A DNA stretch of 64,000 nucleotides from Ostreococcus lucimarinus. Lineage: Eukaryota. The stretch is from assembly GCA_000092065.1 (NCBI GenBank), contig CP000584.1; one strand, written 5' to 3'. Of the stretch, positions 3 to 15,075 are shown piece by piece. Each line of letters opens with the position of its first letter. Positions within the stretch are counted from its first letter, which is position 1. Made by a program: the position numbers and the translations under genes. The notes beneath the pieces were generated by a model that was not told the origin of the DNA, did no database searches, and saw only the letters and a list, made by a program, of their open reading frames with translations.

Positions 3-2144
3 CCGAGTCCGACGCCAGCACCGCAGCAGTCGCCGGTCGACGCCTTTGAACCGACGCCGGGTGCGCCGACGGAGAGCCTCGACGACGCCCCGCCAGAAAG
101 TGACGACTCATACGCTGACTTCGCGCCGGCGTCTGCGTACCCGTCGAGCGTGAACGGTACGTCTGGCTACCCGTCGAGCGTGAACACCACGACGCCGGAC
201 GCGACATCGAGCGCGAGCGAGCCAGCTCTGCCAACGACCCCCCCGAGTCCGCCGCCGCCGCCGAGTCCGCCGCAGCCGCCGAGCCCGTCGCCGCCGCCGC
301 TTCCACCGGCGCCTCCTGGAATCGTTAACGTGCACAACGTCACCATGCAAGCAGGTTCGAAAGCGGTGATGTTCCATCCACCAAAAACAGTTGAGACGCT
401 GCAATCGCCGAATCAACCACTGACGCTGCACTTTATGGAGAATGGCAACGACGCTCAACTCGCGAGTTCTGGATTGCCGTTGTGGACCGAAGTCTACGTC
501 AACGGCGACTTGCAAGACGACGCCGACATCACCTTGAGTAACGGTGATCGTTTGCAACTTTTCGTCAAAGCTTCTCCAGCTCCCCTGGTTCGACGCGCCG
601 CATATCTTTCATACGGTCACAAGCAATTCGTTCTCGACGTCACCACGGCGCAGACGAGCCCGCCACCCCCGCTTCCGCCGGCGGCGCCGCCGCCGCCGAA
701 CGACGTCATCCTTGCACACGTCGCCGCGAATCACCCGACACAGTGCACGTCGGCACAAGCGTACAAGTGGTCGACGTTGACTCAGAATGATCGATCTACC
801 GTGCCCATGAACGCGTGGTGCTCGAGAAACACCACGTTTGGCGAGTTTCAGGCTCCGCTGTGCTCGCATCAAACCGGGCGGGACATCATCATCTTAGTCG
901 ACGCCAGCGAAGCCATCGGTAGTGAGGTGTTCTATGGGAAGATGATCGACATGTTGCATGATTTGTACTGCACGATCGAAGGCACGGGATCGCAAGTCGG
1001 CGTTTTGCTACTCCCAGGAGCTGGCAACCCGTACGTGTGCGACGCCTACACGAGTTACATTCCGTTGCAGCAGCACACGAGCGAGGACTTCCACGCGAGT
1101 TTAGAAAGGATGCGAGCGGACGAGGGCGCGTGTTGCGGCCGAAGCGTGCCGTTGGCGCAAGGTTTGAAAGCTGCGAACGGATTGTTCCGCGATTTCGGCA
1201 TCTTTCCGCCGAATGAGCGAAGCGTCATCTTCGTCACGGCTTCGCACCCATCGACGCCGGTGGAGTTCGAGACTTGTTTGAGCATAAGTGTACCTGAATT
1301 CCGTGACTTGACGCGAGATCACCCCTTCAACGTGCTTCCGAGCGGTGAAGAAATGACAACGTGCGAATACAAGCTTCGATCGGTGCCTGTCGCCGCGGCG
1401 GAACTGAAAACTGCCGGTGTTCGCGTTTCCGTCGTCACCGTTCCGGGCGCCGACGGCGCCGTCCCGTCGAGCGCGTACTACAGCGGCTCTCCGTGGCCGA
1501 GCAAATGCACGGCGGACGGCCAGTGCGAATTTTCTGCCCCGTACGGCGGCGATCGCGGTCACTGGGGCTCGTGGTATACCGACGCCAACGGTGACCTGAC
1601 GCGCGACTACAACCCCGGACCCGAGCTCGCGTGCCAAATGCGCGTCCATCCCGGGACGCCCGTCGTCAGCAGGCCCGTGCTCGCCAACGCCTTGCGCGTC
1701 AACGCGTGGAACCCTCGCGGGTACGCCGACACTCTCGCTGTGGCCATGTGTCCCGCGCCGCAGTGCTTACCCTCGAGCTTGTTCGGCTCCACGTTCGCCG
1801 ACAACTGCGTCGGCGACGACGCGTCGAATTGGGCCCAAACGCTCTCGTGCGTGCGCGGCGAATCGTACTCCATGTGCGACCGTCTCATCCCTCGCACCGA
1901 GCGCTGCCACGCCGAAGTCCGAAGCGACCCCGTGGCCGTGGGCACCGTCAATAACGTCACCGCCGTCAGCGTTCGCATCCACTGCGAGCAACACTGCTCG
2001 GGCGAGCGCACGGACACGCACGCCAAGTCGATTCGCGTCGTCTGCCCGCGCGGCGCCTCGTGCGACGGCGAAGTCATCGGCGACGACGTCATCACCGCCG
2101 TCGAGGCTCAGAGCGCGACGCCGCCGACCTCATCGAACCAGTAA
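3..2144 (+). CDS. Secreted cysteine-rich, proline-rich protein with a von Willebrand factor A-like domain. The 5' end lies outside the window.
   Basis: The reading frame of ORF 150..2144 stays open back to the window start, and the track start is GTG rather than ATG. VWA-like motifs are present: DIIILVDASEAIG, QVGVLLLPG, GACCGRSVPLAQGLKAA and RSVIFVTASHPS. There are extensin-like [13 protein letters not shown] runs and many Cys residues. An AYPSSVNGT/GYPSSVNTT duplication sits at the 5' edge. Stop is at 2142-2144 and TGTAA at 2184-2188. Confidence 0.6.
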   Translation, partial: PSPTPAPQQSPVDAFEPTPGAPTESLDDAPPESDDSYADFAPASAYPSSVNGTSGYPSSVNTTTPDATSSASEPALPTTPPSPPPPPSPPQPPSPSPPPLPPAPPGIVNVHNVTMQAGSKAVMFHPPKTVETLQSPNQPLTLHFMENGNDAQLASSGLPLWTEVYVNGDLQDDADITLSNGDRLQLFVKASPAPLVRRAAYLSYGHKQFVLDVTTAQTSPPPPLPPAAPPPPNDVILAHVAANHPTQCTSAQAYKWSTLTQNDRSTVPMNAWCSRNTTFGEFQAPLCSHQTGRDIIILVDASEAIGSEVFYGKMIDMLHDLYCTIEGTGSQVGVLLLPGAGNPYVCDAYTSYIPLQQHTSEDFHASLERMRADEGACCGRSVPLAQGLKAANGLFRDFGIFPPNERSVIFVTASHPSTPVEFETCLSISVPEFRDLTRDHPFNVLPSGEEMTTCEYKLRSVPVAAAELKTAGVRVSVVTVPGADGAVPSSAYYSGSPWPSKCTADGQCEFSAPYGGDRGHWGSWYTDANGDLTRDYNPGPELACQMRVHPGTPVVSRPVLANALRVNAWNPRGYADTLAVAMCPAPQCLPSSLFGSTFADNCVGDDASNWAQTLSCVRGESYSMCDRLIPRTERCHAEVRSDPVAVGTVNNVTAVSVRIHCEQHCSGERTDTHAKSIRVVCPRGASCDGEVIGDDVITAVEAQSATPPTSSNQ

Positions 2145-7561: not shown

Positions 7562-10500
7562 TTATCGAAGGTCGCCCGTGTCCCAAATCCCCGTGCGCTC
7601 GTTGCGTAAATTTGCAATGTTTCGATCGAAATCCCATCGCGCGCGTGATTCCCGCGAACCGTCGGCGTCGTTATACTCGATCTCTACGAAATCTTGCGCG
7701 GGAATCGTCGACGTAAGCGGTGTTTGTCGTACGCTCGTCGGCTCGAGCGACCTCGCACTCAGCGTCGGTTCCAAAGATGCAGAGGCGACGGTGAACGCAG
7801 TCTTGCGCCCGACGGTGTCCGAGACGTCGAAGTCGGTGAACTCGCTTAGGTGCGGTGTCGCATTTTCGTCGTGCGATGCGCGCGTTTCACCACCGCTGGA
7901 AACTTCGCTTACCACACTCACTGCTTCTTCGCCGTCGTCGTCTTCGGGAATGTCAGCCGGAGGCCAAAACACACCCATGACGTCGACTTCGCCAAACGCT
8001 TCGTCGATGATGAAATATCCATCCTTGATGGCGTTTTGAAGTTTATTTACGAGTATTTCCAAAGGACCACCTTCATTGCTACCGTCACGTCGTTCTGTGA
8101 TGCGGACGGTGACGGTATCTGCGATGTCATCCGTGCGCGCCACGCGCACTCTGTTGACGTCGACGCCGAGCTCGACGGCGATTTCTTTGCAGAAAAAGAG
8201 TTGCGTCGCGTGAGACTTGAACTTTGCCACGGGCATGTGCGTCATGACCTCGATGTCTACGTGGGTTATGTGCGACTTCGTGCGCGACGTAGGCTGATGC
8301 TTTTTTGTACGGCGTATGCCGAACACGTCGACTTCGGCTGGAGCTAGTACCGCAGGCGGCGGCTCAATGTTCGCCTTTGCCATCGGAACGATAGTCTGTG
8401 CCTTAGGCGCGATCGACATGGCCATTTTCGCCGCCGTGCGCCATGAAACTTTCACTTTTTCTTCTTCACTCTCCTTGAGCGCGAGTAAACCGCCACCAGA
8501 TGCTTCTATCACCTTGTGTCGCGGCGGCGCTTGCGGCAACGCGGCCCAATCCTCGAGCGAGCCCGCGACGAAGTAACGTAAGCACGCCCACGCGCCACCA
8601 GCGGCGCCTTGCATCGCTTTGAGTTGTTCTGCCGTCAAATCGTACGTTTCGGATGATTCCATCTTGTCGCTGCACGAAACTTCGCACTCAAATTGATGCT
8701 CATACTTGATCATGCGCAACAAACTCACGTTTTCTTCGAGGGAGTAGTCGAGAGTCAAGAAGTCGAGACGTTTGCCTCGCCACTGCTGCAAGCCGAGAAT
8801 CTCGTTGAGACCTTTGAGGAATAACGCAATGTCACCAGTCTGCATCACTGTTCTCTTGTCCATGATCACGTCGTCGCCCAAGCGCACACCGCCCGGGAAT
8901 GTTGGCGCGATGACGGCGACGCGCTCTACAGGTTGCAAGCCACTGGCTGTCGATAGTCTCTCCTTAGCCTTCGCGATGAGCTTTCTACAAAGCATCGCAC
9001 TGTTGACGTCGTGCTCGTACAAGATAACGCACGTGTCGTCGAGCGCACATGCTTCCAGGCGTTCGGGAAACTTCATCGCGTCTGAGATAAACACGAGAGA
9101 TTCGTACACGCGTGTGGTGTTCGAACGCTTCATCTTTGGCGGCTGCGGCTCGACGTCTGCGGTCGCGACGATCGGGTTCAACGTCTGTTTTGTCGTCGCG
9201 GGTTTCGAACTCTTGCCATCGTCTGTTGTCGCCGCCAGTTGTATCTTTGCCAGTGCAATCTTCATGAGCTGATGTTCGACGGTGTTTGGCGTGAATTCCT
9301 CTGGCACGTCTGCGTCGTCCAACTCGTCGAGTTCCGCAAGTGCCATACTCAGATTGAACATTTGCGTTTTGGACAAAGCCGAACTGTCTGCGCACGCGCG
9401 TGTGCGCTGATAATATTTCATGCAATCCTCGATTCGACCTTGAGAGAGTCGAGTAAGCGTGAGATTGTACAGCGCCGGATAGTAACTCGGATTAATCGTC
9501 AACGCCAGCCTGAGTTGCTCGTTGCACGCGCTCAATAGTCCCTTGCACCAATCGAGCATGGCCAAGTTCGTCAACGCCTCGACGTTGCCCGGATCAACTT
9601 CCAACGCATTAAGGTAATTCGCCCCGGAGCGCTGGAAGTCGCCTCGCCTGAAGGCCAAGTTCCCGAGCTTAACTTGCGACGGAGCGTGCTTGGCGTCGAG
9701 GTTCAACGTCTGTTCAAAGTGATATTCGGCTTTCTTCCATTGTCCAAGCTTAACGTACAACAGCGCGAGGGCGTACGTCGCGCGTGAATCATTCGGACGG
9801 CAGTCGACGGCGCGTTTCATCCATTCTTTTGCCTCACCCACAGAACCAATGGAGTCGATGACGATTGCGAGATTGTACAAAGCCTTGAAGTAATTCGGTT
9901 CACGATCGAGCGCGGCGAGATAGCTCACGCGCGCGCTCGCCGCATCGCCCGCCAAGAAGTGCGCGTTGCCGATGTTGAAGTGCGCGACCGCGCTCACCGG
10001 ATCGCGACGAATTGCCATCGCGTACACCGTGCTCGCCTTTGCGAGCTTGCCTTGAGCGAGGAAAATATTGCCGAGCGTAATCTGCCGCTGCGCTGTCAGG
10101 GTAAGACTTGCACTCCGTTGCGCAAACGCGTGCGCATACTCGGTATCACCGGCGAATGCGCGACAGATGGCCAAGCCGTGCATGATATCGGCGTTTCCCG
10201 GATTCCTCTCTGCCATTCGCGCGTAAATTTCTTCGGCTTCTTCGATACCACCTCTTCGAAAGCAATCGATAGCATAGCGCAAGTCTTCGTCTTCAAATTC
10301 CTTTATGGTGCCGCGAGACGCCGCCGTGTTTTCCATCAACGGTGTGATAGCGTCCACGAAAGATTCGTTTTCGGCGTACTGAAGTGTGAGCTTTTCCCGA
10401 GCCCATATCCGTCTAGAAATTATCCAAAGAATTATGCCGTACACGGAGAGAGCGATGCCTCCCACGGTCCACGACGTCTTGTCGGCTTCGCGCACTCCGA

Positions 10501-13462
10501 GCGGTGGCGGCGGTAGTGGAGGAAGCTCGTACGTGCCGTCGGGGATGCACCGCACGCCATCAATGGCTTCCTGCACCTCTACGCTCAAAACACCGTCAGC
10601 ACGCATGCGAGGCGTTTCCCCGACCCACGCAGGAGCGCCACTAACGAATCCCGATGGACACGCCACGCACGCGACGGATCCAAACGACCCCGCGAAGAAA
10701 TTATCTTGACATTGCACGCAAGACGTCATGCCGCTCGCGGGTTGAATCGTCCCGCGCGGGCACAGAGCACACTCCAACGCTCCTGTTAGTGGTGCCACTG
10801 TGCCGGGCACACACGTGGGGCAACCCGTCGATCCACGAAAGCCAGTCGCCGTGCCCGCACCGCACGTCAAACACTGCGCAGCGTTCGTCGTCGTGGAATA
10901 CGAGCCCGGATTGCACAAAGAACACTCTCGCACTGCGGCGCTCGCGGATGAACTCACGTATGAGCCCGCTGCGCAATCAACTGACGGTAATGACAAAGGC
11001 ACTGCGCCTACGTTCAGCGTACTCGCCGTCACGGCGTCCGAAATCTTCGTCACCGCTTGCGAGAGGTACGTTTGATTCCAGTCGCCGCCGTAACTCGTTG
11101 GCAACATCGCGAGCGAATTGATCGTAAACACAACGATCACCGAGCCTTGTTTGATTCCCAGGATTTCAACATCGTTTGCGGTTGTTCCGTCACTCAGTGC
11201 GCTCGCTATACCAGTTTTGAACGCGGTCGCGTCGGTCTCCGTCCAACCTTCGACGTTTCCTTGTAATCGCAAAGAAATCTCAGGGACGTTGATCGTCACG
11301 TTGAGCGGCGGCAGCGACGGCGGCGATGGCGGCGGTGGTGATGGTGGAGGAGAGGGTGGTGGGTTCGGTGGCGGTGGGGCAAGTCCACAAGACGTCTGCC
11401 CGACGTCACCGAAAGTTCCAGAACCGCTCGCACACGGCGTCGGCGTGACGGTGCCTGCGTTGGGACAGCTGGTGTCCACCGGGCACAATACGCACGTGCT
11501 CGAATCGCTCGCCGCAGTCGCCGTGCTGTACATTCCGGCAGGACACTTAGTACAGTCCTCGTCCGAGACCGCGGCGGTCGTGAGCCCGAACGTTCCAGCA
11601 GGACACGAGCTGCAAGCACTGACACTGCCCAAGCTGTACGTCCCCTTCGCGCAGTCGTACTGCGCCGTCGCCGAACTCGTGTCGTTGCAATACCGCCCTG
11701 GTGGGCAGAACGAGCAATGTGTCTGACCACCTTCACTGAACGTCCCGGGCGCACAATCGGCATTACCACTACCGTCCGTCGCAGGGCATTGTTTGCCGAC
11801 TTCGCACCTCGTGCACGCGCTCACGGCGCCTCCGTAACTATAAAATCCTAACGCGCAGTTCAGCTGTATGTCCTGCGTTGTATCCGTGCAGTAGCGCCCT
11901 GGATCACACTCAGTACACGCTGCAGCTCTCCCTAAACTGAACGTTCCCGCTTGGCACTGCGTCTGATCACCCGGAAGCGGCGTGGGACACGCCGATCCCG
12001 CGGTACAATTTGAGCACGCCTGCGCGCCTGCGTAAGACTGCGTGCCGATCGGACACAAAGCCGGAGCGGACGCTCCATCGGCGCACGAGTAGCCTTCAGG
12101 ACACGTTACACATCCTGCGCCGGACGCCGCCGCGGTCGGCTGCCGAAGTGGGTCGGTGTCGTTGTAAGGCCTCGCAAACGCAACGGCGACATCCTTGAGA
12201 GCCCAGCCGCTGTAGGTGCCCGCGCCGCACTCCTGGTACGCAGTGAGCCCTTCGGTCGGGCACGACTTACCCACCGGGCACGTTAGACAGCTTCCTGACG
12301 CAGAGCTGGGCTGGTACGTGCCGATATCACACAGTTCGCAAGACGTCGATCCCTCCTCTGCGTACGATCCAGCGGGACACGCCGAAGGCGTAATTCTTTC
12401 CGCAGTCGACTCGCACTTGTAACCAGCCGGACATGGCAAGCACGACGTACTTCCCACAGTAGCCGCATATGTCCCGGCCAAACAAGGCGAGCACGTCGAA
12501 CTTCCCTCGGCTGCCGCCGACCCCGCGGCGCAAATCTCCGGCGTCACCGTGCCCGGCGATTCACACTTGTAGCCCGCCGTACAGCTTGTGCAAGTCGCTG
12601 ACGCCGCCGACGCCGCGAACGTGCCAGCATCACACGTCGAACATTCGAGCGATCCCTGCGCGGACGATGTACCCGCGAGACAGGGCTGCGGCGTGATTGT
12701 CGCCGCGCTCGCACACTTGTAGCCCGCCGGACACGGCGCGCACGATCCTCCCGCGGCGCCGTTGTACTCTCCCGCCGGACACGGCACCGCGATCGACGTC
12801 TTCAACAATTCACACTCCGTACCCGCCGGACACTGCGAGCACGACGACTGCTTTCCCTCGAAAACGCACGTCACAGTCGTTCCCTCGTTGTCCAATCCCG
12901 CACCGTTATTCGTCACCTCCCCGCACCCCGACACGAATCCGTCCGCTTGCCCAGCCGTCTCGCACACCATCCCGATCGTGCCCGTCGGGCTCACTGACGG
13001 CGCGCACGTCAACGTCATCGTCCCCGAATCCGGCAGCGGGATCACGCACGTCGCCGCTTGCTCTTTAAAAAAGCTCAACCCGCCCTCCGCGTACGCGCAC
13101 GTCGCCGCGATTTTCGACCCGTCCAGCCCGTGACTCGCCTGATACGCCTCCTGCAGCGCCGTCACCCAATTCGCCTCATCTATCGCGTTCCCCGCGCAAT
13201 CCGTGGCGACGTCCCACTGGCACACCGCGTTCGCGCCCGTGGCGTAATTTCCGACGCCGCAGTCGGCGCACGACGTCGCCGTCCCGTCGCCGCTCGTCCC
13301 CGCCGCGCAGTCCGCGCACGCGCCGTCATCGATGAACTGTCCCGCCGCGCACGTCTGCGCGGACGCGGGCGTTATCAACGCCGTCGCCGACAGCGCGAGG
13401 AGCGTCGCGAGCGTCAGCGCGCGCCGCACGCGCGCGAAACGAGGCCGCGGCTCTTTCGGCAT
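7562..13462 (-). CDS. Giant type-I transmembrane receptor-like protein. It has an ephrin-receptor-like/TNFR-like cysteine-rich repeat ectodomain, a Pro-rich stalk, a single TM helix and an intracellular TPR array with an unknown C-terminal domain.
   Basis: The in-frame ATG at 13462 (cat at 13460-13462) begins the signal peptide MPKEPRPRFARVRRALTLATLLALSATALITPASAQ. The alternative upstream start is at 13549. More than 15 repeats of the form C-x2-C-x-AG-x(8-12)-C-x2-C-x-xG-Y follow. Then comes PPPPNPPPSPPPSPPPPSPPSLPP, and then the TM segment WTVGGIALSVYGIILWIISRRIW. About 10 TPR units follow (for example ALYNLAIVIDSIGSVGEAKEWMKRAVDCRPND), then a roughly 600-aa C-terminal region with no recognised motif. 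Stop is at 7562-7564, and TGTAA on the minus strand is at 7547-7551. Confidence 0.7.
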   Translation of the reverse strand: MPKEPRPRFARVRRALTLATLLALSATALITPASAQTCAAGQFIDDGACADCAAGTSGDGTATSCADCGVGNYATGANAVCQWDVATDCAGNAIDEANWVTALQEAYQASHGLDGSKIAATCAYAEGGLSFFKEQAATCVIPLPDSGTMTLTCAPSVSPTGTIGMVCETAGQADGFVSGCGEVTNNGAGLDNEGTTVTCVFEGKQSSCSQCPAGTECELLKTSIAVPCPAGEYNGAAGGSCAPCPAGYKCASAATITPQPCLAGTSSAQGSLECSTCDAGTFAASAASATCTSCTAGYKCESPGTVTPEICAAGSAAAEGSSTCSPCLAGTYAATVGSTSCLPCPAGYKCESTAERITPSACPAGSYAEEGSTSCELCDIGTYQPSSASGSCLTCPVGKSCPTEGLTAYQECGAGTYSGWALKDVAVAFARPYNDTDPLRQPTAAASGAGCVTCPEGYSCADGASAPALCPIGTQSYAGAQACSNCTAGSACPTPLPGDQTQCQAGTFSLGRAAACTECDPGRYCTDTTQDIQLNCALGFYSYGGAVSACTRCEVGKQCPATDGSGNADCAPGTFSEGGQTHCSFCPPGRYCNDTSSATAQYDCAKGTYSLGSVSACSSCPAGTFGLTTAAVSDEDCTKCPAGMYSTATAASDSSTCVLCPVDTSCPNAGTVTPTPCASGSGTFGDVGQTSCGLAPPPPNPPPSPPPSPPPPSPPSLPPLNVTINVPEISLRLQGNVEGWTETDATAFKTGIASALSDGTTANDVEILGIKQGSVIVVFTINSLAMLPTSYGGDWNQTYLSQAVTKISDAVTASTLNVGAVPLSLPSVDCAAGSYVSSSASAAVRECSLCNPGSYSTTTNAAQCLTCGAGTATGFRGSTGCPTCVPGTVAPLTGALECALCPRGTIQPASGMTSCVQCQDNFFAGSFGSVACVACPSGFVSGAPAWVGETPRMRADGVLSVEVQEAIDGVRCIPDGTYELPPLPPPPLGVREADKTSWTVGGIALSVYGIILWIISRRIWAREKLTLQYAENESFVDAITPLMENTAASRGTIKEFEDEDLRYAIDCFRRGGIEEAEEIYARMAERNPGNADIMHGLAICRAFAGDTEYAHAFAQRSASLTLTAQRQITLGNIFLAQGKLAKASTVYAMAIRRDPVSAVAHFNIGNAHFLAGDAASARVSYLAALDREPNYFKALYNLAIVIDSIGSVGEAKEWMKRAVDCRPNDSRATYALALLYVKLGQWKKAEYHFEQTLNLDAKHAPSQVKLGNLAFRRGDFQRSGANYLNALEVDPGNVEALTNLAMLDWCKGLLSACNEQLRLALTINPSYYPALYNLTLTRLSQGRIEDCMKYYQRTRACADSSALSKTQMFNLSMALAELDELDDADVPEEFTPNTVEHQLMKIALAKIQLAATTDDGKSSKPATTKQTLNPIVATADVEPQPPKMKRSNTTRVYESLVFISDAMKFPERLEACALDDTCVILYEHDVNSAMLCRKLIAKAKERLSTASGLQPVERVAVIAPTFPGGVRLGDDVIMDKRTVMQTGDIALFLKGLNEILGLQQWRGKRLDFLTLDYSLEENVSLLRMIKYEHQFECEVSCSDKMESSETYDLTAEQLKAMQGAAGGAWACLRYFVAGSLEDWAALPQAPPRHKVIEASGGGLLALKESEEEKVKVSWRTAAKMAMSIAPKAQTIVPMAKANIEPPPAVLAPAEVDVFGIRRTKKHQPTSRTKSHITHVDIEVMTHMPVAKFKSHATQLFFCKEIAVELGVDVNRVRVARTDDIADTVTVRITERRDGSNEGGPLEILVNKLQNAIKDGYFIIDEAFGEVDVMGVFWPPADIPEDDDGEEAVSVVSEVSSGGETRASHDENATPHLSEFTDFDVSDTVGRKTAFTVASASLEPTLSARSLEPTSVRQTPLTSTIPAQDFVEIEYNDADGSRESRARWDFDRNIANLRNERTGIWDTGDLR

Positions 13463-13785
13463 TTCGCAACGCGTCGACGGTTTCGTCTCTACGCGTCGCC
13501 GACGATCGACGACATGCGCCCGTCGCGCGTGTGCGCGCCCGCGACGCACGTTTCTCTCGCGGGCGTCGCGGACGCGCGCGTGGGGGCGGTGCGCGCGATG
13601 TAAACTGACGCGATGGGGCCGCGGGCATCGTCCCCCTCAACCGTCCGGGCGGCGCGACGGCGGCTCGATTCGACGGATGGATTCGATTCGCGGCGTCGCG
13701 CGTCGACGGACTCGTCTCTACGGATTTTTTGGATGGATTCGTTCGTTAAATAATGCACGCGGGCCGAAGATGCGCGCGCGCCGGG

Positions 13786-14958
13786 CTAACGCTCGAGCCA
13801 GGCGTCTTCTTCCACGGCGACGCCGGTGTGACGAGCGACGCGATCGCAGACGACGAGGACCTCGTCGCCGGGGACGAGCTCGGCGACGGAGACGTGCGCG
13901 CCGCCGGGACGGACGAGACGACACGTCTCGGCGTTTTGAAGTAAAACGGCGAGCGTGCCGACGTCGGGCCCGCTCGGGTGGTCGGCTTCGATCATAAGCA
14001 TCGAACGACGCTCCATTTTGACGCGAGCGACGTTGGCCACGCGCGTTCGGCCGTCGGCGGCGCAGACGAGGATTTCGCTTCCACATCGCAGCTCGCTCAG
14101 GTAGGACGTTTTACCGTTCGGGGCGCGCACGTATGACGCCGTCGGGCCCGCATTGACCCTAAATGGACGCGTGTTGACGTAGCCGCACTCGATGTTTTCC
14201 GCGTGAATCAAGAACAAACCGCTCGCGAACGATCCCACCAGCATGCCCTCGCCGAGCTCAAAGTTCGTCGCCGCGTCCACGGCGCATCGATCACCAGCCC
14301 CCACGCGTTTCACCGCAGTCACTCGCGCGGGCACCAACTCTAATTTTTCACTCGATTCCCCACCGAACGAGCGCATCGCATCGGCTAACGCGCGTACCTC
14401 CGCCGGGTCGTTCGTCCGCAAGCACACGCCGTCGACGCCGGTCTCCAACGCCTCGAGCATCACTCGAGCCTCCGCGGCGTCGTGCACGCACGCGAACAGC
14501 GCCCTGTCTATCGGCGTTCCCGCAAACGCCGCGACTAAATTTTCTGCGGGAATGATGGACCAACCATCGACGCAGTCCATGACCAACACGTCGCCGTCCC
14601 GTCTCGAAGCCGCCGCCGCCGCCGCGCGAGCGCACTCCTCTGGCGATCTTATCACCGCGAACGCGCCTCTGCGCGCGCCTTGGACGCGATCGACGATCGA
14701 ACCATCGTCTTCGGCGACGAGTAATTCGCAATTCACCGACTTTGCGAACGTCTCGGCGTCGCGCGCCGCGCAAACCACCGTGGTGGTTAGAGCTAATTCA
14801 GCAGCCGTCTGCACGCACTGCACGTTTGACGTCTGTAACCAGCACTGACGGGCGCGATCGCGATCGCGTTTGCTCGCGCGACACACGATGGTGTCGCTTC
14901 GACGCGCGCGCGCGGTCGGCGGCGCGTGACTCGCGAGCGAGCGCGCGGTTGAAGCCAT
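13786..14958 (-). CDS. Archaeal-type 3-dehydroquinate synthase II-like protein (DHQS-like), probably plastid-targeted.
   Basis: ATG at 14958 (cat at 14956-14958); the upstream track start at 14991 is GTG. The N-terminus MASTARSLASHAPPTARARR looks like a transit peptide. The core segment GYVNTRPFRVNAGPTASYVRAPNGKTSYLSELRCGSEILVCAADGRTRVANVARVKMERRSMLMIEA and the overall pattern resemble the PF01959 family found in archaea and in plants (At3g28760-like). Confidence 0.6.
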   Translation of the reverse strand: MASTARSLASHAPPTARARRSDTIVCRASKRDRDRARQCWLQTSNVQCVQTAAELALTTTVVCAARDAETFAKSVNCELLVAEDDGSIVDRVQGARRGAFAVIRSPEECARAAAAAASRRDGDVLVMDCVDGWSIIPAENLVAAFAGTPIDRALFACVHDAAEARVMLEALETGVDGVCLRTNDPAEVRALADAMRSFGGESSEKLELVPARVTAVKRVGAGDRCAVDAATNFELGEGMLVGSFASGLFLIHAENIECGYVNTRPFRVNAGPTASYVRAPNGKTSYLSELRCGSEILVCAADGRTRVANVARVKMERRSMLMIEADHPSGPDVGTLAVLLQNAETCRLVRPGGAHVSVAELVPGDEVLVVCDRVARHTGVAVEEDAWLER

Positions 14959-15075
14959 GCGAGGCGAACAGTGTGGGACCGTGTGGGACACACATTGGAC
15001 CGTGTGTCGGCATAATTCGACGTACAGACGCGCGTCAGCGCGAGCTTTCGACCGAACGACGATCGAGATTGAACG

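Follow-up and report, generated by a model that had tools for sequence, protein, structure and literature searches.

What kind of protein is encoded by the long open reading frame (ORF) at positions 7562 to 13462, minus strand, of a 64,000-nt stretch of the Ostreococcus lucimarinus genome (GCA_000092065.1, contig CP000584.1; the whole stretch is hereafter termed the window)? Ostreococcus, the smallest free-living eukaryote, carries a highly compacted genome, and to our knowledge almost nothing is known about contact, partner or virus sensing by naked picoalgae. A sequence-only reading of this locus had proposed an animal-like cell-surface receptor with ephrin-receptor-like or TNFR-type Cys repeats, a Pro-rich stalk, a single transmembrane (TM) helix and an intracellular TPR array. 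Our analysis keeps much of this outline, removes the animal ephrin/TNFR identity and adds a predicted SEA-like domain with a candidate self-cleavage site in the ectodomain. We describe the architecture with high confidence. The function that we favour, a non-enzymatic adhesion or mechanosensing-type surface receptor working in the manner of dystroglycan and the membrane mucins, is proposed by analogy and we consider it about evenly poised.

An intron-free gene encodes a predicted type I membrane protein

The minus-strand open frame spans 7562..13549, and its first ATG at 13462 gives a complete coding sequence of 1,966 amino acids (aa) with no intron (7562..13462, minus strand), terminated by a TAA stop at 7562-7564. 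The single ORF of about 1,970 aa previously read from the letters was therefore recovered at the same coordinates. These 5.9 kb stay open, with zero stop codons, at ~60% GC, in a window that has the same GC content, many genes and few introns. The coding sequence is colinear with six full-length orthologues, a 99.5%-identical protein, P0001, exists, and in one relative MMETSP transcript ORFs of 1,976 aa, marked 'complete', span the whole architecture; the split into separate genes that had been named as a possible outcome was not seen in these comparisons. The gene is real and intron-free, and it encodes an uncharacterised membrane protein. P0001 lies on a Logan contig (L001) whose neighbouring proteins are identical to O. 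lucimarinus CCE9901 XP_001417435.1 (beta-adaptin) and XP_001417434.1 (NSUN2). It differs from the window protein at nine residues (aa 260, 394, 449, 1223, 1409, 1637, 1663, 1796 and 1806), and the other full-length cluster members compared differ at 5-11. These differences represent natural population variation, distributed across the whole protein with no enrichment in its head.

Topology was read from a Kyte-Doolittle scan using 19-residue windows, two of which were strongly hydrophobic (aa 15-33 and aa 998-1016). The first lies between a basic n-region and ASA|Q (A35) and is signal-peptide-like. The resulting predicted signal peptide (aa 1-35; 13358..13462, minus strand), with its h-region at aa 15-33 and ASA|Q as cleavage motif, has an equivalent N-terminus in all orthologues. 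The second window, with a hydropathy of 1.77 over 19 residues, is the sole internal segment of such strength and is followed by RRIWAREK; it forms the core of a single TM helix with a basic RRIW stop-transfer sequence (10403..10471, minus strand). Cys residues number 96 in total, 94 of which are N-terminal to this helix, which sits exactly at the junction of the Cys-rich and Cys-poor halves. Both the single helix and the signal-peptide-like N-terminus agree with what had been proposed. Collectively, these sequence features point to a type I membrane protein, with the Cys-rich part outside, the scaffold in the cytosol and positive-inside residues directly after the helix.

A predicted SEA-like domain carries an invariant Gly-Ser-Val motif

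In addition to two conserved cytosolic blocks (described below), a third block was found in the ectodomain at aa 723-829 (10976..11296, minus strand), a region absent from the sequence-only reading. Its AlphaFold2 model (pLDDT, the predicted local distance difference test, of 86) has a beta-alpha-beta-beta-alpha-beta topology. The solved structure closest to this model is beta-dystroglycan, which was also the top Foldseek match (E=1.5e-3, probability 1.00, TM 0.62, 20% identity), and CELSR1 was matched there with a probability of 0.90. Other structural matches included CELSR1 (8.2), protocadherin-15 MAD12 (7.7), IA-2 (7.5), the SEA domain 1ivz (7.5) and MUC16 SEA5 (7.2), followed by TMPRSS6, cadherin-23 MAD28, Notch2 HD, ADGRG6 and alpha-sarcoglycan.

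The block contains the tripeptide G773-S774-V775 (11138..11146, minus strand), a candidate SEA-type autoproteolysis site. This tripeptide was invariant in 12/12 aligned Ostreococcus- and Micromonas-type homologues, and a GS[VI][VI]V motif occurred in nearly all family members, the Micromonas-type version being GSVVVDF. In the model it occupies residues 58-60, in the turn separating strands 50-56 and 60-66, that is, between beta2 and beta3. Two hallmarks of SEA domains were thus found: the ectodomain of this membrane protein contains a modelled ferredoxin-like fold, and the beta2-beta3 hairpin of that fold carries a motif of the G|S-[VI]-[VI]-V type. An hhalign comparison placed G773-S774 on RG|SIVVEW of a human dystroglycan fragment, a weak alignment (E=0.01, 38 columns). 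Dystroglycan is cleaved at Gly653/Ser654. On its modelled fold and motif we describe aa 723-829 as SEA-like, standing outside the Pfam SEA family. SEA domains that carry GSVVV or GSIVA self-cleave in the beta2-beta3 loop (PMC6954182), and the cleaved fragments remain associated until force parts them (PMC10327162). A protein search with the trimmed SEA-like alignment returned one 188-aa match and missed known members, so it was uninformative on both the distribution of the domain and its link to animal SEA domains.

Cys-rich rods in the ectodomain

A motif scan counted 24 CxxC motifs, in line with the more than 15 modules reported before, in three blocks of 2 (aa 38-81), 16 (aa 208-692) and 6 (aa 830-935). 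In Pfam the region matched Ephrin_rec_like (PF07699; E=2.2e-25, 88.6 bits against a cutoff of 23.1) in seven stretches. A score above the gathering threshold, together with tandem, regularly spaced CxxC motifs in an extracytoplasmic region, places the repeats in PF07699. The ephrin-receptor-like label thus held, and the TNFR label fell away with the absence of any TNFR_c6 match in Pfam.

From the N-terminus, the mature ectodomain begins with two CxxC modules (aa 37-81; 13220..13354, minus strand). These are followed by a membrane-distal head (aa 82-207; 12842..13219, minus strand), which has eight Cys, is the least conserved folded part of the protein and matched no family in the Pfam scan. 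Cys rod 1 (aa 208-692; 11387..12841, minus strand) comprises 16 CxxC modules of the Ephrin_rec_like/GCC2_GCC3 type. Between it and the SEA-like domain lies a segment that is Pro-rich in all orthologues (aa 693-722, APPPPNPPPSPPPSPPPPSPPSLPP; 11297..11386, minus strand), in which the Pro-rich stretch covers ~28 residues with one SPPP and one SPPPP motif; in hydroxyproline-rich glycoproteins and extensin-like stalks, Ser-Pro(3-5) motifs are repeated, hydroxylated and arabinosylated. The Pro-rich 'stalk' of the sequence-only reading is therefore present as a segment, but because it connects Cys rod 1 to a globular domain and does not adjoin the membrane, it is a short internal linker and not a stalk. 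C-terminal to the SEA-like domain, Cys rod 2 (aa 830-943; 10634..10975, minus strand) adds six CxxC modules and a weak NCD3G match. The juxtamembrane ectodomain segment (aa 944-997, starting PAWVGETPRMRADGVLSVEVQEAIDGVRCIPDGTY; 10472..10633, minus strand) leads into the TM helix. We considered a furin- or kexin-type site in its conserved TPRMRA sequence and discarded it on inspection, as this is neither R-x-x-R nor dibasic.

The cytosolic half combines TPRs with a diverged DUF4347-type domain

About ten cytoplasmic TPRs had been predicted. We counted by eye nine in-register 34-residue units (aa 1058-1363), which with a capping helix extend to aa 1380 (9323..10291, minus strand). Pfam TPR families matched over aa 1060-1370 with E values from 1e-23 to 1e-9, and TPR_17, TPR_2, TPR_11, TPR_19, TPR_16, TPR_1, TPR_14, TPR_12 and TPR_8 were all above cut-off. 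The Pfam check proposed with the sequence-only reading was thus borne out for both Ephrin_rec_like and TPR. Across the whole protein, the Pfam scan (E<=0.1) returned no Pkinase, Death domain or other signalling enzyme.

The two further conserved blocks noticed earlier, to which no motif had been assigned, correspond to aa 1453-1645 and 1734-1835, and the first of them is of DUF4347 type, which the earlier reading had missed. This first block (8528..9106, minus strand) was modelled by AlphaFold2 as an alpha/beta domain (pLDDT ~90) whose fold matches Tce1, a type VI secretion system effector (PDB 9qpe_G). A direct match of the window protein to DUF4347 (PF14252) was not obtained in Pfam at E<=0.1. 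In the Micromonas-type protein P0013, however, the counterpart of this block matches DUF4347 with 38.4 bits against a cutoff of 24.6, and BLASTP aligned this region with the window block at aa 1453-1645 (E=2e-18). When 1.84 billion representatives were searched exhaustively with a profile, 201 matches were obtained. About 14 very strong ones belonged to the same receptor family and the remainder were mostly DUF4347-type domains, many of them near the N-termini of large proteins. A profile of DUF4347-type domains, the window block among them, also matched human ECT2L (PDB 11xu, aa 289-461; E=1.5e-24). Through these intermediates and the shared modelled fold, aa 1453-1645 is assigned as a diverged DUF4347-type domain.

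In many DUF4347 domains the alignment shows a His ('HG' motif) and a Cys ('LLaC' motif) after consecutive strands. Among 157 related domains His was present in 69, Cys in 104 and both in 59. The window protein has P1520 and L1571 in these columns, invariant in 7/7 aligned Ostreococcus-type sequences, and the aligned first DUF4347 copies of Micromonas-type proteins likewise have Pro and Leu. A resemblance to the TcdB cysteine-protease domain has been noted for the resolved domain of Tce1, in which His186 and Cys240 form a putative dyad of unproven activity (PMC13323088). Judging by spacing and strand position, we infer that the P1520 and L1571 columns equal His186 and Cys240 of Tce1. If DUF4347 is a protease fold, the window copy is presumably dead and serves as a binding module. 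The DUF4347-type domain of human ECT2L (11xu_A1) also has neither His nor Cys, and a 2026 preprint locates an ECT2L dimer on the B-tubule of the ciliary transition zone. ECT2L is a second eukaryotic and apparently non-catalytic use of this fold. The Micromonas-type proteins have a second DUF4347 copy (aa 1974-2144 in P0012) that keeps the His ('MTHHK') and has Tyr in the Cys column. Such a second copy probably explains part of the ~500 extra residues in the ~2,500-aa Micromonas-type proteins (P0012, P0013).

The second block (aa 1734-1835; 7958..8263, minus strand) was modelled by AlphaFold2 as a cytosolic ferredoxin-like domain of beta-alpha-beta-beta-alpha-beta topology (pLDDT ~85), and the Pfam profile search gave no family for it. 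An internal duplication relating this domain to the SEA-like domain was considered and rejected (hhalign probability 1.4%). The protein ends in an acidic, Ser-rich tail (aa 1836-1966; 7565..7957, minus strand) with three short motifs conserved in the orthologue alignment, SEVSSGxxTRxSHDENAxP, DFVEIEYNDA and RWDxDxNxxNLRxxERTGIWDT. The last of these stands at the extreme C-terminus and aligned in the Micromonas-type P0013 as well.

Conservation and distribution of the family

Six further full-length clusters of Ostreococcus type aligned end to end with the window protein (52-59% identity, 1,929-1,976 aa). Micromonas-type relatives, which include M. pusilla XP_003057720.1, were ~35% identical and ~2,500 aa long. 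The same uninterrupted architecture was observed in at least seven species-level clusters and in Micromonas-type proteins, and the gene is conserved full-length across the Mamiellales. Named entries could be placed in 90%-identity clusters: O. tauri OUS49281.1 (UniRef A0A1Y5II90) in one whose representative is 59% identical to the window protein, and the partial M. pusilla entry in one whose representative is 36% identical. Full-length relatives were found only in green picoalgae. On a 135-kb metagenome contig (L002), an orthologue with 58% identity has the same neighbours in the same order: 3-dehydroquinate synthase II (DHQS-II) and NSUN2 lie upstream, and KH, MatE and Utp14 follow downstream. 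As the genome is compact and the gene is both syntenic and conserved across the Mamiellales, a single-exon gene of 5.9 kb is unlikely to be dispensable.

Conservation varied along the protein. Mean pairwise identity among seven orthologues was 0.32 in the head, ~0.55 in the Cys rods, 0.56 in the SEA-like domain and 0.76 in the juxtamembrane ectodomain segment, the highest value in the protein. In the cytosolic half it was 0.64 for the TPR array and 0.66 for the DUF4347-like domain. Linkers in general averaged ~0.36. This gradient fits a variable recognition end joined to a constrained transmission or scaffold end.

The family is already in the databases, only as 'hypothetical', 'TPR repeat protein', 'MYND-type' (mis-merged) or uncharacterised entries. 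In the O. tauri model OUS49281.1 (P0152, 2,435 aa), fusion to an upstream MYND gene has put ~500 N-terminal residues with a zf-MYND finger in place of the signal peptide, attached straight to the mature ectodomain; hence its misleading label, 'MYND-type domain-containing protein'. Metagenome gene callers often report a 1,014-aa 'TPR repeat protein' that begins at the internal M953 (10604-10606; P0124, 82 contigs). Because calls start at M953, truncated models, in which the ectodomain stays hidden, dominate the database counts of this family. Our literature searches found no paper on the window protein and nothing relevant on PF07699, ephrin-like or GCC2 proteins in Ostreococcus or Micromonas; a paper on CRINKLY4 concerned other proteins. 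A tblastn search with the 1,966-aa protein detected no paralogue within the window.

More distant metagenomic relatives of 1,600-1,700 aa (P0252, P0254) retain Ephrin_rec_like, TPR and DUF4347, and in P0257 and P0261 the TPRs are retained and the C-terminal profile matched. Beyond these, short single-pass chlorophyte proteins have a cytosolic DUF4347-like domain ~100 residues past a TM helix (P0266, P0270, P0276, P0281, P0293). Examples are Volvox africanus GLI62112.1, Chlamydomonas XP_001691267.1 and a Tetraselmis striata-type cluster (P0281), some with C-terminal EF-hands. Their DUF4347-like domain opens with 'PYERL[VI]LISSR', where the window protein has 'VYESLVFISDA'. In contrast to the window protein they are much shorter, have neither Cys rods nor TPRs, and keep the Cys without the His. 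Extracellular, N-terminal segments of P0293 and P0281 (PGSVVVEFEV and PGSVNVDFEL) matched the SEA-like profile weakly (E=5e-5 and 8e-4). From this it seems that green algae have the SEA-like/TM/DUF4347 arrangement more than once, a lead provided by few sequences, and these proteins may represent an unrecognised green-algal receptor module.

Comparison with known systems

In its proposed working, the protein comes closest to dystroglycan (DAG1), MUC1 and MUC16, which are type I proteins whose SEA or SEA-like module is autoproteolytic. Several differences accompany this analogy. The window ectodomain is a Cys-knot rod, whereas that of dystroglycan and the mucins is a mucin or cadherin-like region; the Pfam SEA and DAG1 families are not significant for the window domain; the cytosolic scaffold of TPR, DUF4347 and ferredoxin-like domains is unrelated to theirs; and cleavage of the window protein is predicted only.

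A second comparison is with giant PF07699 surface proteins ('zonadhesin-like', 'TNFR-Cys domain-containing', apicomplexan GCC2/GCC3), which have the repeat family in common with the window protein. Hundreds of protein matches were to the window rod only (E=1e-50 to 1e-130). These giants cover just 16-46% of the window protein, in its Cys-rich region, and those with Pfam domains listed among the matches have neither TPR nor DUF4347. PF07699 is a generic Cys-rich module that is present in thousands of protist, algal and animal surface proteins.

Proteins with DUF4347 form the third group and include Pseudomonas aeruginosa Tce1/PA0256 (9qpe_G), human ECT2L (11xu) and the N-termini of giant bacterial proteins. 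In the window protein the domain belongs to the cytosolic tail of a receptor-like protein, whereas elsewhere it is part of an effector (Tce1) or a RhoGEF (ECT2L). DUF4347 thereby gains a eukaryotic, apparently non-catalytic context. No Pkinase match was obtained in Pfam that would indicate a plant or algal receptor-like kinase (RLK). By its sequence, the window protein is best placed in the PF07699 repeat and TPR superfamilies, and not among Eph receptors, TNFRs or RLKs.

A model for function and its alternatives

An anonymous 'TPR repeat / hypothetical protein' now has a concrete model. Under the favoured explanation, the protein would be displayed on the naked cell surface, where its variable head and rigid disulfide rod would contact an external partner, be it a cell, a particle, a virus or matrix. 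The SEA-like domain would self-cleave at G773|S774 while folding, leaving two subunits that stay joined non-covalently until mechanical load separates them. On the inner side, the scaffold of TPRs, pseudo-protease DUF4347 and ferredoxin-like domain would recruit partners or cytoskeleton, and the conserved C-terminal motifs of the same protein are possible ligands of the TPRs. We propose the cleavage and mechanosensing steps tentatively, with somewhat less than an even chance. If the cleavage model is true, mutation of G773/S774 should abolish cleavage; if cleavage is absent, this would be an ordinary lineage-specific multidomain surface protein.

Several observations weigh against this model. 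The alignments behind the AlphaFold2 models comprised just 12 sequences. Pfam SEA (PF01390) gave no match to the SEA-like domain with each member scanned at E<=10, Pfam DAG1 reached only E=0.26 and in one member only, and comparison of the SEA-like profile with PDB sequences produced only noise at E>0.3. The SEA assignment accordingly depends on modelled fold and motif, and the Gly-Ser pair might be conserved for structural reasons only, as part of a tight hairpin. Between the SEA-like module and the membrane lie ~170 residues and Cys rod 2, an arrangement unlike that of animal SEA modules. For DUF4347, the connection to Cys proteases is itself just a proposal, made for Tce1 (PMC13323088).

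The alternative that survives best is a passive surface coat or adhesin, whose rod decorates, protects or glues the cell and whose cytosolic part is a mere anchor to the cortex that passes no signal. This explanation overlaps with the favoured one. In many protists and animals, giant PF07699-rich proteins of a surface-coat or adhesin-like kind are common, and Pfam detected no signalling enzyme domain. However, the ~950-aa cytosolic half is more conserved than the ectodomain and is retained in all relatives, a large investment for an anchor in a highly compact genome. We consider a passive role unlikely, albeit one to be taken seriously.

A broader form of the mechanosensing model would have the protein, with its outer Cys rods and inner TPRs, as the most elaborate member of an ancient, unrecognised green-algal receptor class, defined by an extracellular self-cleaving SEA-like module, one TM helix and a cytosolic DUF4347 pseudo-protease scaffold, and acting as a contact or force sensor on the naked cell surface. 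A pull on the rod would then dissociate the cleaved SEA-like domain and alter what the TPR/DUF4347 scaffold binds. If this were true, SEA-type mechanotransduction, which has been studied mainly in animals and recently in Firmicutes, would extend to the plant lineage. We offer this generalisation as speculation that is rather unlikely to hold in full.

Two narrower alternatives are improbable, to a similar degree. In the first, the protein would be an endomembrane protein (a Golgi, vacuole or endoplasmic reticulum cargo or sorting receptor), with its Cys-rich part in the lumen and its TPR tail on the trafficking machinery. The topology evidence fits the secretory pathway as well as the plasma membrane, the acidic motifs of the tail could serve in sorting, and the TPR and ARM_TT21-like matches recall trafficking scaffolds. 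Against this, the structures most similar to the SEA-like domain belong to plasma-membrane proteins, the fast-evolving distal head suggests exposure to external partners, and inspection of the tail by eye, with no formal scan, revealed no obvious YxxPhi or dileucine motif. In the second, a special case of the favoured explanation, the variable head would be a recognition determinant on which prasinoviruses or mates dock. With an identity of 0.32 the head is the least conserved folded region, and on a naked cell such as Ostreococcus the protein would be directly exposed. Yet the nine substitutions relative to P0001 are not clustered in the head, and no link to such recognition was found in the literature.

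True homology with animal ephrin- or TNF-type receptors, implying the binding of a secreted ligand and signalling, is very improbable. The PF07699 match, the type I topology and the large cytosolic domain are compatible with it, but Pfam (E<=0.1) lacks Ephrin_lbd, FN3, Pkinase, SAM, TNFR_c6 and Death, PF07699 is generic and occurs in hundreds of unrelated architectures, and full-length relatives are restricted to green picoalgae. On these grounds the animal-like receptor identity of the sequence-only reading is withdrawn. Least probable of all is a gene-model artefact in which adjacent genes for an extracellular and a cytosolic TPR protein are read as one ORF: the many 1,014-aa database fragments starting at M953 (P0124) and the O. 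tauri NCBI model, itself mis-merged with its upstream MYND gene, would favour it, but 5.9 kb without a stop codon at ~60% GC, an uninterrupted architecture in at least seven species-level clusters plus Micromonas-type proteins, full-length 'type:complete' MMETSP transcript ORFs and a TM helix exactly at the Cys-rich/Cys-poor boundary all argue against it.

Neighbouring genes and other features of the window

Long antisense ORFs overlap the gene, for example at 9959-10516 and 11118-11726 (both plus strand), and are probably the usual by-product of ~60% GC rather than genes. A scan of the 64-kb window found zero tRNA genes and zero Rfam families at the gathering threshold. A 664-aa ORF at 150-2144 (plus strand) matched no Pfam family at E<=1e-5; the matching place in L002 is part of a 1,689-aa gene, likewise without a Pfam family. 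The upstream neighbour at 13786-14991 (minus strand) encodes 3-dehydroquinate synthase II (PF01959, E=5e-95) and is syntenic in L002. This archaeal-type enzyme provides an alternative entry route to the shikimate pathway and is unusual for a green alga.

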